Shown piece by piece: positions 28,350 to 52,025 of a DNA stretch of 64,000 bases. Position 1 is the first letter of the stretch; every line of letters begins with the position of its first letter. A program made the translations under genes and the position numbers. The notes beneath the pieces are model-generated. The model saw only the letters and a program-made list of their open reading frames with translations. It did no database searches and was not told the origin of the DNA. The stretch is from Escherichia phage AidaStucki_Bas93: the sequence record PQ850593.1. One strand, 5' to 3'.

Positions 28350-28602
28350 AGATTAAATCATAATACTGAATAATGTCAGAGAGTTTGAACTCTCGAATCT
28401 CATCTTTCTCTATATCTATCGCTGTCATAATCCAACAAGGTTTGCCACCGTTATGAAAACGGGAGCTAGCAACGGAGGTTCGGAGTGGAATAACGGACCG
28501 GTCAGCAACCTCGCCTCTCCAATTGCGATAGCGAAAGCGAAGCACTTGTTGCGTAGATTTTTGATCATCATTCATTTCCTTTCTTGAATTGTTTTCTTGC
28601 AT
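28348..28602 (-). CDS. hypothetical protein
   Basis: 84-aa ORF, last gene of the minus-strand arm. Confidence 0.4.
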   Translation of the reverse strand: MQENNSRKEMNDDQKSTQQVLRFRYRNWRGEVADRSVIPLRTSVASSRFHNGGKPCWIMTAIDIEKDEIREFKLSDIIQYYDLI

Positions 28603-28969
28603 CGTTTTCCATCTTTGTTTTTAGTTTATGACAAGGGTCTTTACACAGAACCTGAAAACCTTCTTTCTCACACAGAGCACGAGAGATGATTTCATCCCAA
28701 GTTGCTTCATGGTCAAGAGGTACTATAGGCTCTATGTGGTCAATAGCCATATCCTTTACAGGGTGGTCAGAACCACACATGGCACACCTAAAGTGCATTG
28801 CCAGTCTACCTGTCTTTGGATTAATCTTCTGCTCTGTCTTGGCTTCTGCTAGTGCATCGAACATGGGCTTCCACTTTCTAGTCAGAGAACGAATCCCTGA
28901 CTTAATGAAAGAGTTGTAACGAGCTTCAGTCCAAGTTCCACTACAGCGTGTCTTCTCAGACTTCGCCAT
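28568..28969 (-). CDS. HNH endonuclease
   Basis: CAMCG ... AIDHIEPI ... QVLCKDPCHKLKT HNH/zinc motif. Confidence 0.75.
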   Translation of the reverse strand: MAKSEKTRCSGTWTEARYNSFIKSGIRSLTRKWKPMFDALAEAKTEQKINPKTGRLAMHFRCAMCGSDHPVKDMAIDHIEPIVPLDHEATWDEIISRALCEKEGFQVLCKDPCHKLKTKMENDARKQFKKGNE

Positions 28970-29135
28970 AATCAGCTTCTTCCCAAACTCGTTTGTTTAC
29001 ACGATGACTCACTTTGCCCTCACGAGGAATACGACCTGTCCTCTGATCAAACAGTTGATGTTTAATCTTTTGATCTTTACGAGATTCACGATTGGAGGAG
29101 TTTTCATCATATGAACGATAATCAAATTTACCCAT
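28956..29135 (-). CDS. hypothetical small basic protein (59 aa)
   Basis: hand-translated ORF below track cutoff, AAGGA RBS; stop overlaps the HNH start. Confidence 0.25.
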   Translation of the reverse strand: MGKFDYRSYDENSSNRESRKDQKIKHQLFDQRTGRIPREGKVSHRVNKRVWEEADYGEV

Positions 29136-29148
29136 TATAATATCCTTA

Positions 29149-29967
29149 TTACCAAGATTTATCTAACCATGTCCAGTCGAACAGGTCTTCCGGAGCCTGA
29201 CCAACAAAGAGAAGCCGAGCATTCTCAAGCATTTTCTCTTCATCTTCAGTATCGAACTTCTTATAATATTCCATTCGTACTATATGATACATGGTCCACT
29301 TATCTGTAACCCCAGCCAACAACTTAGCTGCTGCTTTCTTCCCTATCCCTTGACGTCGAAGCTGGAGCTTACCGCCCCACATCACTTCTTTACGTTCACC
29401 ACATCCGGGAATATTATCTGTTCCATCTCCAATCAGCATCTGATAGAAGAAATTTTGCCATGAAACTAAATCAGATACGTAGTGAGGAGGAACCTCTTTT
29501 TGTCTTTCTCCACAAGCCCAACGGTAATGCCATCCGGGAGTTATTAACAAATCTTTGTCTCTAGTACAGATGATAGTGTTCTTATCTCTACGTTGCCTTT
29601 CAGCTAGTGCATCATCAGCCTCTCTCCCAAATACATCTATGTATTCATACTTACCTTTAATATAATCACCGACATTTTGCCAGTGAAAAGGTCTTTCTCC
29701 GGGAGGTCTGTTTGCTTTGTAGTCTTGCTGCTTAGCAACATCGAAACGGAAGTTACCGCCTTCGCTGAAGTAGAACACAACCTTACTGCAACCTGAGCGA
29801 GCAATGATAGTATCTATCTTGTACTGAAGTCGTTCAATCATGAAATTATAATCAACTGGAACACGTCCTGTGTCAAGAAAGGGATGCTCCTGAGTAAGGG
29901 CACCCACTTCATATCGAAGAACATCTCCGTCCACAATCGCTACTTCTGGATAAGATATATCACTCAT
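29149..29967 (-). CDS. 5'-3' exonuclease / flap endonuclease (FEN family)
   Basis: N-terminal AIVDGD and GIGKKAAAKLL helix-3-turn-helix motif; start moved to MSDISYPEV with GGAGG RBS. Confidence 0.75.
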   Translation of the reverse strand: MSDISYPEVAIVDGDVLRYEVGALTQEHPFLDTGRVPVDYNFMIERLQYKIDTIIARSGCSKVVFYFSEGGNFRFDVAKQQDYKANRPPGERPFHWQNVGDYIKGKYEYIDVFGREADDALAERQRRDKNTIICTRDKDLLITPGWHYRWACGERQKEVPPHYVSDLVSWQNFFYQMLIGDGTDNIPGCGERKEVMWGGKLQLRRQGIGKKAAAKLLAGVTDKWTMYHIVRMEYYKKFDTEDEEKMLENARLLFVGQAPEDLFDWTWLDKSW

Positions 29968-30403
29968 GATTTCCTCCATGGTGTCGGATAAGGTGACAAT
30001 TAGCACAGAGCATGACACATTTATCTAACTCTGCCTTAAGTTTAGGCCAGTACCGATAGTATGAAGGGTTTTCGTCTTTTGTTTGTTCATCCAGATGATG
30101 GAACTGCATAACACAAGGTGGGTATTCTTTTTTACAATCTAAGCAAACACCTCCCATGTATTCTATTGCTTTTATCTTAAGATCTCTATTTGCCTTATTA
30201 GCAACCTCTTGCCGTCTTTTTCTATTGGCAGCATACCAAGCTCTTTTCTTTTCTGCGGTACAAATCCTACAAGTTCCAGTAACACCCTTAGTACACATCT
30301 TATTGGGGTGATATTCTGTTATGGCTTTTTCAACCCCACAAACGTTACACACCTTAGTATCAGCATCCACTATAGCTACTTCAGGGAGCTTAACGTCTTC
30401 CAT
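29960..30403 (-). CDS. HNH endonuclease, free-standing
   Basis: Cys-rich zinc-binding N-terminus and QFHHLD ... NCHLIRHH motif; stop overlaps the FEN start codon. Confidence 0.7.
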   Translation of the reverse strand: MEDVKLPEVAIVDADTKVCNVCGVEKAITEYHPNKMCTKGVTGTCRICTAEKKRAWYAANRKRRQEVANKANRDLKIKAIEYMGGVCLDCKKEYPPCVMQFHHLDEQTKDENPSYYRYWPKLKAELDKCVMLCANCHLIRHHGGNHE

Positions 30404-30404
30404 A

Positions 30405-30928
30405 TTATTCTCCTAATAACTTACGAATTTCAATACGGAAATTATCATACTCTTCAGGGTATTCAAACCCACATTCAAGAAGAGCATAGTGAACAACCTT
30501 CAGCAAATCCTGAACCTTATTCTTATCTTTGTGTCGATAAGCATATTTGATCATGTTGGTTTGTTGAAAGTTCAACTGAGGGTTTGCATGATAAAACTCG
30601 ATAGGTTGAATCTTCTTGCTATCAGGGTTATAGTGGGAACCTCCCACCATAGAAACTAATGCTGGGTTACCTTGAGATGCCATTTCTAACTTCTCCGTGT
30701 GGTCATGTGAGTAGTCTACTGGAGAGGTTTTGTTACCAGTAATTTTAGGTAAAATCGCTCTAACTGTTTCTATGTACTTACCGCCATCAACATTAATTTG
30801 AAACTCCACAAGTTCATCCTGTAGTTCATACCCTGATAAGCTTGATAGTTCCTCTAGCTCGTCTCTGAGGAAGTTTGTGTGCTTTCTTTGGGTTGCAAGC
30901 GCTTTCTTTAAAAGAACTATTTCTTCAC

Positions 30929-30938
<10 letters not shown>
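30405..30938 (-). CDS. hypothetical protein (DUF3310-like C-terminus?)
   Basis: GSHYN ... IKYAYRHKDK ... VHYALLE resembles phage DUF3310 proteins as I recall them. Confidence 0.4.
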
Positions 30939-32222
<1,284 letters not shown>

Positions 32223-49994: not shown

Positions 49995-52025
49995 TTAACC
50001 TCTATTCAATGAACATTTAGGAGAATTACAATAAACTTGATTCATAGAACCAAGCGTACAACTTTCAGCATCGCGCCACGGAATCTGCTTAAAACACCCT
50101 GAGCAGTAGCCGAGGGTTGACCACATTGCTTTGGTGAAGTCAGTGCTTCGATTTCCGTCGAAGCTGACAACAGTTTTGCGGAGAGCTGTTCGTGATTCAG
50201 GAAACACACCTGCTTTCTCAGCAGGTTCCTCCTTTTTTGGCTTAGTTGAGATTGCAAAAATACTGTTGCTACGTTTCTCAACATAAGCATCAACAACATC
50301 CTCCAGAGTAATGCCTGTCTGTTTCGCTGAGGAAGGTAATACAGTCATACGACCAATCATATCTTCAGTTACACGTAAAGCAAATTCAGGACGACGGGCG
50401 TTTGTTGTATCTGTTGCTTTAATCCAGACATAACCATCTTTGATCGTAGCATTAGATACTTTCTTCTTTATATCTACAGCGCAGACTTTACAGATGTCTT
50501 CACCACGAAGACGACTGAGTTCATCATCAAACTCGTTCTCTGTTTTAACTTCACCACAGATTTCACAAACACCAATAGGAGTTTCCTCCTCTTCTTCATC
50601 TTTAGGCTTAGTCAAACCTTCCAGACATTCAGGGTGCCAGTAGCATTGATATGCGAAGACTGCTTTAGGTGCATCCTTCCAATCAATGTGTTTATCACAA
50701 CCGCCACAATCACCATGAGAATGTGCTTCCCAGAATTTACGAGTGATAGTAACGCCATTCTTGTTGACGAAACTATCATTCATATCAAAAGGGATATCAT
50801 CATCAAAGTCAGCAGTAGTTGACTCAGGCTCCTTTTTCTCCAGAGATGGGTCAACAAAACGACCTGCTGTGATCACTAAACGAACCATAGCATTAACTTC
50901 GGAGATACAGGATACTGTCCCACGGTAAACAATTTTAGGGTCTTTCAGGGCATCCTGATAAGCCTTAATGTCTACGTTATGAACATCACCTTCGATATAC
51001 TCTTGAGATTTCTCATCGTAGATATAACCAATCATCTTACCACGAGAAGGAACAGCACCAGCAGTTGCATAAGGGACAAACTCATGTGGTGTGATCTCCA
51101 CAGTCATGTCGCGGCGAATGTCAATGTTTCGATCGCTTGCGATTTTGTTTTGACTTACCACTGCGTTTCTTCGACGAACGTCTGCCGCTGTCACTCCCGG
51201 CTTCGTGTCGTAAGGATTGCTTGTACTGCTTTTTGAGGAACTTTGATAGTTGCTTTGGCTGTAGTTGTTCGAGTAGTAATTGCCCCAACGATTGATTACC
51301 GTAAAAACCGGAAGCTCGTGGGCGACCTCTTCAACTAGAGTCATGCTGTTGTTTGACACATCAAAGATGTATTCTGTACCAACTTTACATTCAAAGTGCT
51401 CATCAATGCGATTCTTGTGAGACCTAGAACGCTTCAGAATCCACATCAACATATCTTCTTCAGAAGCACCAAACCAATCTCTGTTACAACGTGCAAGATG
51501 GAAAGGACGCTCTTCATTACGGATGATATGAAGACGATTATCAGAAGCATCGTGCCAGATTAAGGTGAAAGCACCATCCAGCTTTTGAATAGTCTCTGCT
51601 GCACCAATAGTGTTAATAGAGTGGCAGATGTTTTCACTGTCTACCTCGAAGTTTTTACTGTCAGGTAACAGGTCTTGGTTCATCAAGGTTCCGTTATGAA
51701 CCAGAGTGATGTTACCGTGTTGGAAAGGATGGGCGTTCTTGGCGTTAACTGCACCTTTCGTTGCATGACGGCTGTGACCAACAATCCATGAAGGTGCTAC
51801 AGTGTAAGCTGTTTCACCAGTGGTGTGCTTCTTGTACTCATCTTTAAGGATGAATGCGAAAGAAGGAAGTGCCTCTTTATAAGTGAAGACCTCTTTAGTG
51901 CTTTTACGCTGACCAAAGATACCAGAGGAGTGCTGTCCTCGGAATACTCCAGCATAAAAGAGTTGGTTAAATATATCTAAATCAGTGCTTGACAGATTAC
52001 CGCCAGCTAATACGATGCCACAAAT
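49995..52025 (-). CDS. class-II (Ntn) glutamine amidotransferase domain fused to a Cys-rich C-terminal region; apparent non-AUG start
   Basis: frame is open upstream of the track's TTG start back to a TAG at 52029-52031 and begins K-I-CGIVLAGG (catalytic N-terminal Cys); AGGTGG sits 8 nt upstream of the ATT preceding the Cys codon. Confidence 0.5.
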   Translation of the reverse strand: MCGIVLAGGNLSSTDLDIFNQLFYAGVFRGQHSSGIFGQRKSTKEVFTYKEALPSFAFILKDEYKKHTTGETAYTVAPSWIVGHSRHATKGAVNAKNAHPFQHGNITLVHNGTLMNQDLLPDSKNFEVDSENICHSINTIGAAETIQKLDGAFTLIWHDASDNRLHIIRNEERPFHLARCNRDWFGASEEDMLMWILKRSRSHKNRIDEHFECKVGTEYIFDVSNNSMTLVEEVAHELPVFTVINRWGNYYSNNYSQSNYQSSSKSSTSNPYDTKPGVTAADVRRRNAVVSQNKIASDRNIDIRRDMTVEITPHEFVPYATAGAVPSRGKMIGYIYDEKSQEYIEGDVHNVDIKAYQDALKDPKIVYRGTVSCISEVNAMVRLVITAGRFVDPSLEKKEPESTTADFDDDIPFDMNDSFVNKNGVTITRKFWEAHSHGDCGGCDKHIDWKDAPKAVFAYQCYWHPECLEGLTKPKDEEEEETPIGVCEICGEVKTENEFDDELSRLRGEDICKVCAVDIKKKVSNATIKDGYVWIKATDTTNARRPEFALRVTEDMIGRMTVLPSSAKQTGITLEDVVDAYVEKRSNSIFAISTKPKKEEPAEKAGVFPESRTALRKTVVSFDGNRSTDFTKAMWSTLGYCSGCFKQIPWRDAESCTLGSMNQVYCNSPKCSLNRG

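Follow-up and report, generated by a model that had tools for sequence, protein, structure and literature searches.

Why should a free-standing HNH endonuclease gene and the flap endonuclease (FEN) gene directly downstream of it begin with nearly the same peptide? The question arises in a 64,000-nucleotide (nt) stretch of the genome of Escherichia phage AidaStucki_Bas93 (PQ850593.1), here called the window, from a Kuravirus-like phage of E. coli with its best DNA matches in PH444, Paul and 172-1 (91-94% identity). A first-pass annotation of this DNA had pointed to a PEVAIVD(A/G)D core shared by the two open reading frames (ORFs), had estimated about 20 of 27 identical nt over it, and had read the pair as the footprint of an HNH gene inserted in the 5' end of FEN with duplication or repair of the FEN start. 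The core is indeed shared at 8 of 9 residues and, by count, at 21 of 27 nt, and the HNH stop does overlap the FEN start codon in ATGAGTGA (29967-29960). This reading is borne out by comparison with relatives lacking the HNH gene, with the refinement that the second start is foreign, cassette-borne sequence and no local duplicate. With a probability of roughly 85%, the locus represents a free-standing HNH homing-endonuclease cassette inserted in the FEN coding sequence after codon 15 and apparently built to keep both genes.

The evidence begins with phages Paul, Ptacy1479 and SU10, the kind of comparison that had been proposed at the outset. In all three, no gene separates the upstream kinase gene from FEN, and FEN runs uninterrupted from its start, M-E-(D/E)-VKLPEVAIVDAD-VLRYEVG. 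When the window is aligned with these HNH-less relatives, the ribosome-binding site, the ATG and 15 codons match, a single gap follows, and the sequences agree again from GTTCTTCG (FEN codon 16) onwards. The gap is exactly the cassette, 436 extra nt (30358..29923) following FEN codon 15. Over the aligned bases, HNH codons 1-15 agree with the native FEN start at 42/42 positions in Ptacy1479 and 40/42 in Paul; since they are the native FEN start of HNH-less relatives, this much is certain as an observation. Presence of the cassette is polymorphic: it is absent at this precise point from Paul, Ptacy1479, Bas88 and TH42, and SU10 also has no HNH gene here. Within it lie HNH codons 16-147, GGAGG as a ribosome-binding site, an additional ATG that shares bases with the HNH stop, and FEN codons 1-15 for a second time (copy B; the native set is copy A). 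The features of the locus are the following.

30938..30405, minus strand: DUF3310 protein gene, a dNMP kinase by annotation of relatives
30403..29960, minus strand: HNH ORF, 147 amino acids, starting MEDVKLPEVAIVDADTKVCNVCG (also given as MEDVKLPEVAIVDADTKV)
29967..29149, minus strand: FEN ORF, 272 amino acids, starting MSDISYPEVAIVDGDVLRYEVG (also given as MSDISYPEVAIVDGDVLR)
29960..29967, minus strand: ATGAGTGA, in which the HNH stop overlaps the FEN start codon; the same overlap occurs in phage ECBP2
30410..30413, minus strand: native FEN ribosome-binding site GGAG, now that of HNH; the same TTAGGAGAATAATATG stands before the FEN ATG in the HNH-less Paul and Ptacy1479
30359..30403, minus strand: copy A, native FEN codons 1-15 (MEDVKLPEVAIVDAD), now HNH codons 1-15, recognised by identity to the FEN starts of relatives
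29923..30358, minus strand: inserted cassette, 436 nt; GAT at both junctions leaves the boundaries ambiguous by 3 nt
29960..30358, minus strand: HNH body, codons 16-147 and TGA stop
29973..29977, minus strand: ribosome-binding site GGAGG supplied to FEN by the cassette, embedded where HNH residues H-G-G are encoded, read from CATGGAGGAAATCATG
29923..29967, minus strand: copy B, substitute FEN codons 1-15 (MSDISYPEVAIVDGD), 45/45 identical to ECBP2
29149..29922, minus strand: FEN body from codon 16 to its stop codon, typed as local Kuravirus by identity to Paul and Ptacy1479

This anatomy can be read directly from the alignments. From the substitute ATG, FEN forms one unbroken ORF of 272 codons, and its body, compared in blocks of 100-274 nt, is 89-97% identical to Paul, 93-98% to Ptacy1479 and 70-83% to ECBP2. 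The junction directly follows the D-x-D codons; (V/I)-D-(A/S)-D stands there in all 78 classified loci of one FEN clade, and every start found in a search with the D-x-(D/E) pattern sits at this same FEN position. An AlphaFold model of the HNH protein, built from 93 family members, has a mean pLDDT of 91.6, with 94-98 for residues 21-140 and about 61 for residues 1-10. Such a low-confidence N-terminus fits a captured tail, as the model would have it, and not a part of the folded enzyme.

A second copy of the cassette is found in ECBP2, a phage of the genus Suseptimavirus whose HNH protein is 95% identical and whose HNH gene immediately precedes FEN, again overlapping it by 8 nt. Both cassettes lie at the same GAT/GTT junction, an insertion point shared by two genera. 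Along the locus, the window and ECBP2 agree to the following extent.

Upstream region: 60%
Kinase gene: 53%
Copy A: 71%
HNH body: 98.5% (385/391)
Copy B: 100% (45/45)
FEN in blocks: 70-83%
Downstream: 78%

A cassette 98.5-100% identical between flanks of 53-83% is a signature of horizontal transfer. The ECBP2 HNH protein starts MPDVIYPEVAIVDAD, which matches the FEN start of the HNH-less phages Bas88 and TH42 (residue 2 being P or S); in these two, FEN reads M(S/P)DVIYPEVAIVDAD and continues directly with VLRYEVG, the alignment gap falling at the same GAT/GTT point. The HNH start accordingly differs by lineage, MEDVKL... in Kuravirus and M(P/S)DVIY... in Suseptimavirus. The first-pass annotation had held that the same HNH N-terminus without a FEN neighbour would speak against insertion; what is found here is an HNH start equal to the FEN start of the HNH-less relatives of its own lineage. 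The same cassette therefore appears to occupy the same codon of two diverged FEN alleles, using the local start each time, and the locus, as far as its sequence tells, is a precisely bounded and recently transferred HNH cassette.

The origin of copy B can be approached in the same way. Copies A and B agree at 27/45 nt, with a longest shared run of 8 nt (manual count). By manual count on the alignment, copy B is closer to the native starts of Suseptimavirus (MSDVIYPEVAIVDAD), with 34/45 to IME267 as against 27/45 to copy A. Next to the junction, copy B has GGA GAT where native Kuravirus starts (Paul, Ptacy1479) have GCT GAC, changing Ala14 to Gly, and the middle codon of D-x-D differs between copies A and B in three of four close cassettes. 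The second FEN start thus appears to be foreign sequence travelling with the cassette and no local duplicate, and because copy B is nearest to native Suseptimavirus starts, an origin of the cassette in a Suseptimavirus-like phage is suggested. In the six-frame translation of the 64-kb window, no other match to PEVAIVDAD at 7/9 residues or better was found. At the DNA level, an unrelated match to the core at 20/27 nt occurs at 51787, and the DNA similarity of the two copies was for this reason rejected as stand-alone evidence.

The arrangement extends to a wider family. A search of 5.8 billion proteins yielded 276 relatives at E<=1e-8; since a viral-contig search with the single HNH protein returned only 5 loci, the family alignment was used instead, and HNH conservation was judged on 93 aligned sequences. 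The window protein has all 15 family-invariant residues. Its catalytic motif (F101-H102-H103-L-D, N112/N135 and C136-H137...H141) is complete, each element being invariant or nearly so in the family, and the CxxC pairs 19/22, 45/48 and 87/90 together with C129, C133 and C136 are invariant and suited to zinc binding. The protein looks intact, and nuclease activity is predicted for it. Many family members start with M-x-x-L-I-D-(A/G), followed by a conserved T/x-K-x-C-x-x-C, and short members with an MKV-CxxC start of their own place the conserved HNH start at about residue 16. Of the 91 HNH-profile matches in the loci examined, 52 have FEN directly downstream; the remaining 39 are mostly more distant homologues. 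Examples of the paired starts are given below.

Salmonella phage PKM.Hi.22.6 (Grimontviridae, 48% identical): HNH MRILID, then TKTC; FEN MRILLDADILRYQ (MRILLDAD)
L172/L173: HNH MEDVKLPEVAIVDAD, then ITKTC; FEN MSNETPAPPEIAIIDSD
L175: HNH ...YDYTLALIDAD, then STKTC; FEN MEMYDYTVALLDAD
L176: HNH MEDITLPTLAMIDAD, then TKIC; FEN MSDITLPKIATIDGD

The placement of GGAGG within H-G-G codons is repeated in L172, L175 and L176, and the protein P0001 (98% identical) and the sister cassette P0006 (61% identical) lie on other Kuravirus-type contigs. Rather than a one-off footprint, the arrangement appears to recur across a large HNH family.

From what is established for free-standing homing endonucleases, we infer nuclease activity, a target site, homing, immunity and translational coupling, which would combine as follows. 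With the HNH body fused in frame behind the ribosome-binding site, ATG and codons 1-15 that belong to FEN, the nuclease would be made from the start signals of the host gene and carry a 15-residue FEN-derived tail; because it uses these signals, its expression should accompany that of the replication genes. The 3' end of the cassette would provide FEN with a new GGAGG, a new ATG and substitute codons 1-15, giving a full-length FEN that would now depend on the cassette's ribosome-binding site and ATG and whose translation is probably coupled to that of HNH. In a mixed infection, the nuclease would cut or nick FEN alleles that lack HNH, close to where the conserved D-x-D-(V/I)-L motif is encoded, and the cassette would be copied into the cut allele as the carrier genome serves as repair template. 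The carrier itself would be protected at the left junction, where the HNH body splits the target site, and at the right junction, where GGA GAT replaces GCT GAC and synonymous changes lie further upstream. The divergence of copies A and B should make loss of the cassette by recombination between the repeats rare.

Several observations weigh against an active homing cassette. Between the window and ECBP2, the switch from lineage-specific to shared sequence occurs within about 3-6 nt at each junction, leaving almost no co-converted flank; this is unusual for simple break repair, and recombination with local relatives at a later time, or separate acquisition from some third donor, may account for it. 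Among cultured phages, the cassette is also rare, ECBP2 being the only Gordonclarkvirinae match in the phage collection. In addition, the ECBP2 HNH protein carries C129Y at a cysteine present in all 93 aligned family members, including the window protein; the ECBP2 copy may be inactive, and some copies may be decaying. A rival reading is an immobile relic, a cassette that once arrived by homing and whose HNH protein is no longer an active homing enzyme; it would be kept because FEN translation has come to rely on the cassette's ribosome-binding site and ATG, or because the nuclease has assumed another role. Rarity among sequenced Gordonclarkvirinae and the ECBP2 substitution at an invariant cysteine speak for such a relic, as do the difficulty of precise loss, which requires recombination of 45-nt copies matching at only 27 positions, and a metagenomic locus (L186) that has lost HNH and retains the substitute start. 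However, the window copy keeps every family-invariant residue, its 98.5% identity to a copy in another genus between flanks of 53-83% points to recent movement, and the 98%-identical and 61%-identical relatives lie on other Kuravirus-type contigs. A relic is on balance unlikely.

The remaining explanations fare considerably worse. A tandem duplication of the local FEN start beside an unrelated HNH neighbour, with no mobile cassette, would produce two similar 45-nt segments flanking the HNH body, as observed; but copy B matches copy A at 27/45 and ECBP2 at 45/45, lies nearer to Suseptimavirus starts, and moves jointly with the HNH body between genera, which makes this account very improbable. 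It has further to be asked whether the FEN-like N-terminus was captured at all, or is intrinsic to the HNH family, convergent or due to chance. Many family members do start M-x-P-L-I-D-(A/G), and longer ones contain an internal ...LLFDGK... or ...FLVDGK... before the first CxxC, the origin of the motif being unproven for some distant members. Against this stand the 42 bases identical to the Ptacy1479 FEN start, which include the non-conserved first six codons and are accompanied by the upstream ribosome-binding site, the variation of the HNH N-terminus with the FEN start of the host lineage, and the MKV-CxxC members, in which the conserved HNH begins at about residue 16; an uncaptured N-terminus is hardly credible. 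Equally hard to sustain is an insert removed from the FEN message as an intron or from the protein as an intein, even though group I introns and inteins are the usual carriers of in-gene endonucleases (bioRxiv 10.1101/2022.08.31.505936). An Rfam intron search of 29000-31000 returned no match, and the 436 nt are filled by the HNH ORF and copy B, leaving no room for a ribozyme core. Protein splicing is impossible, since the HNH ORF is closed by a stop codon and FEN, which continues in a different frame, has a ribosome-binding site and ATG of its own.

Beyond the window, the homing cassette presents a further feature in its relatives. Of the 52 HNH-FEN loci, 33 have a copy B that is equipped with an ATG and a strong ribosome-binding site of the AAGGAGG type, yet is separated from the FEN body by a tiny insertion. 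The junctions fall into the following classes.

CTT TAG CTN, 20 loci (L050-L054, L056, L062-L066, L043-L046, L049, L060, L074, L041, L015): in-frame stop
CTG TGA CTA, L023: in-frame stop
GAT TAG (A/G)T, L013, L014, L016, L021: 5 nt, frame change
CTT TGA C CTA, Vibrio phage Phriendly (L006, ~1950-1990): 7 nt
Single extra base, L017-L020 (GAT T CAC), L025, L026 (CTT C TAT): frame change
CGA TAG T, L024: frame change

The frame-changing insertions of 1, 4 or 5 nt mostly have a stop codon at the point of the shift. In the first FEN clade, a comparison that drew on L092-L171, GAC TTT CTT GTC TAC is uninterrupted in 66/66 HNH-less loci, and ...CTT TAG CTN GTC... is present in 12/12 HNH-bearing ones. 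In the second clade, 61 HNH-less loci are uninterrupted and 5/5 HNH-bearing loci are interrupted, with four exceptions: L186, L189, L227 and L244, the last cut off by the contig end. In these two clades, the linkage between interruption and cassette is close to absolute. The HNH-less Vibrio phages BA6 (L179) and phivp506 (L180) have GAC ATC CTA CGT TAT GAG where Phriendly has GAC ATT CTT TGA C CTA CGT; CTT TGA C is the same string as the E. coli release factor 2 frameshift site. In the deposited annotation of Phriendly, HNH is truncated and FEN is started internally as a 'hypothetical protein', both being mis-called.

Reassignment of TAG was considered for the in-frame TAG codons and rejected, as FEN itself ends in TAG at a conserved length in 68/79 loci. 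The short start peptide M-x-P-L-I-D-x-D persists from locus to locus although its codons vary synonymously, and matching or synonymous codons flank the stop in several classes (CTT...CTT, CTT...CTA, GAT...GAT). A peptidyl-tRNA hop over the stop would restore the exact native protein. The CTT TAG CTN junctions have the layout of a 'stop-hop', known from synthetic constructs, of which a 2016 review knew no natural in-frame case (PMC5009743). It is possible, at somewhat less than an even chance, that the window cassette belongs to a large undescribed family of mobile elements that target FEN and preserve the host gene's function through a substitute 5' end, in which the interruptions are natural short hops or frameshifts that also destroy the nuclease target site; within that reading, the window may represent a simpler form, self-protected by base substitutions alone. 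Recoding in the interrupted relatives, which is no feature of the window itself, stands at roughly even odds. As a caveat, intact downstream FEN ORFs are no proof of translation, because homing can put a cassette into many intact FEN backgrounds.

Variation in cassette structure was also observed. In the TAG group (L092 and L094, alignment columns ~315-345), HNH has its own start, with a near-consensus promoter-like site just upstream (TTGACA, 17 nt, TATAAT, preceded by TG); these cassettes replace the intergenic region and the first FEN codons without a fusion, an architecture unlike that of the window. At L189 (~500-1215), a different endonuclease, HNH_3/AP2-like by motif, is inserted at this same point of FEN, its N-terminus bearing a captured ...QPLIDADVLR, and the 3' module is of the same kind, comprising a ribosome-binding site, MQALIDGD and then GAC TAG TC. 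An exchange of endonucleases inside a cassette frame that is itself conserved is suggested. At L186 (~1100-1215), HNH is lost save for its last few codons, the substitute start and a GAT TAG AT interruption being kept, and L227 (~1150-1215) has a +1 interruption with no nearby endonuclease. By their remaining sequence, both look like cassettes with a decayed endonuclease, comparable to the mobA pseudogene in T4.

As to the identity of the genes themselves, the order on the minus strand is DUF3310 protein, HNH ORF, FEN ORF, a 59-amino-acid ORF and a second HNH gene. The HNH protein matches PHROG 2255 'HNH endonuclease' at 1.1e-39, and several other HNH and endonuclease VII PHROGs also match. 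A Pfam scan of the HNH protein found no HNH model, its sole match being a weak and meaningless one to ALKL1_2; because no Pfam HNH family matched, the HNH label rests on PHROGs and conserved residues. The HNH-family profile reached E values of only 0.04-0.26 against PDB sequences, none of them significant. FEN matches PHROG 107 'exonuclease' at 2.9e-64 and Pfam 5_3_exonuc_N at a sub-threshold 26.6 bits (cut-off 34.3), and its counterparts in relatives are annotated as 5'-3' exonuclease. A promoter and terminator scan of 28900-31400 gave no convincing signals within the cassette, with counts near the shuffled expectation.

In the surroundings, the second HNH gene (28568-28969, minus strand; PHROG 3106 at 1.9e-38) lies two genes 3' of FEN and is conserved in relatives, and a further HNH_3/AP2 gene immediately follows FEN in L172/L173 (2767-3252) and L175 (2785-3243). 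The neighbourhood of FEN looks like a hotspot for endonuclease genes. On the other side, the DUF3310/dNMP kinase gene (30405-30938, minus strand) is highly variable among Kuraviruses, with 92% identity to Paul and 72% to Ptacy1479, while in SU10 its position is taken by a gene of 894 nt. The endonuclease thus adjoins a boundary of mosaic exchange.

Among known systems, the closest mechanistic parallel is the mobile endonuclease ORFs (mORFs) of fungal mitochondria, of which the window locus is the mirror image at the 5' end. Such mORFs occur in Allomyces macrogynus atp6 and in Glomus atp6, atp9, cox2 and nad3, where they insert in genes while carrying a foreign C-terminal segment, the native one being left alongside (PMC3630166, citing the original Allomyces report). 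Both arrangements have an endonuclease ORF within a gene without intron or intein, a foreign, diverged gene end that is supplied, and a native end kept as a near-duplicate. The defining pairing of an endonuclease with a diverged substitute end is found in the window, where copy B travels with the HNH body; however, the fungal mORFs act at the 3' end, encode LAGLIDADG or GIY-YIG enzymes and reside in organelles, whereas the window has an HNH enzyme at a 5' end in a phage. Moreover, the displaced native start is here no dead remnant, being reused as start signals and 15 codons of the endonuclease.

Nearest among phage systems are MobA with gene 60 (T4-type) and MobE in Aeromonas phage Aeh1 nrdA. 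In these, the host gene is split and given new tails, and the MobA cassette carries the gene 60 bypass, a 50-nt ribosomal bypass by which the carrier is shielded from its own nuclease (bioRxiv 10.1101/2022.08.31.505936 and PMC5009743, both citing Bonocora 2011, the preprint also Friedrich 2007). Like the window cassette, they are described there as free-standing HNH homing endonucleases in an essential replication gene of a lytic phage, with added coding sequence that keeps the gene working. MobA and MobE involve two polypeptides and the gene 60 bypass, whereas FEN in the window is a single full-length chain with no recoding; it is the interrupted relatives of the cassette that resemble a short-range gene 60 arrangement.

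Intronless homing by free-standing phage endonucleases is exemplified by the T4 Seg and Mob genes. Collaborative homing, as in the endonuclease-plus-intron pairs of T3 or cyanophages, has been summarised elsewhere (PMC10448857). Like these, the window endonuclease adjoins a conserved gene that it would target, is polymorphic among close relatives and marks a boundary of genetic exchange; unlike them, being neither intergenic nor reliant on a neighbouring intron, it lies within the gene and itself disrupts and replaces its target. The window cassette works like known systems and belongs to none of them. In a literature search of incomplete coverage, where absence is no proof, no earlier account was found in which a phage endonuclease captures the start of its host gene.

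The prevailing view holds that an endonuclease gene can enter a coding sequence safely only within an intron or intein, or where the gene is split into two pieces that both work. The window locus shows another route, in which the start of a gene is replaced and its old start is reused to express the endonuclease. For annotation, this means that such HNH proteins have host-derived N-termini and that the start of the neighbouring gene is foreign. A 436-nt cassette with exact boundaries, together with cultured HNH-less partners (Paul, 172-1 and SU10), also offers a clean test system. If the interrupted relatives are indeed recoded, they would provide many natural short hops and frameshifts of clear origin, and would bear on the origin and uniqueness of the T4 gene 60 bypass.

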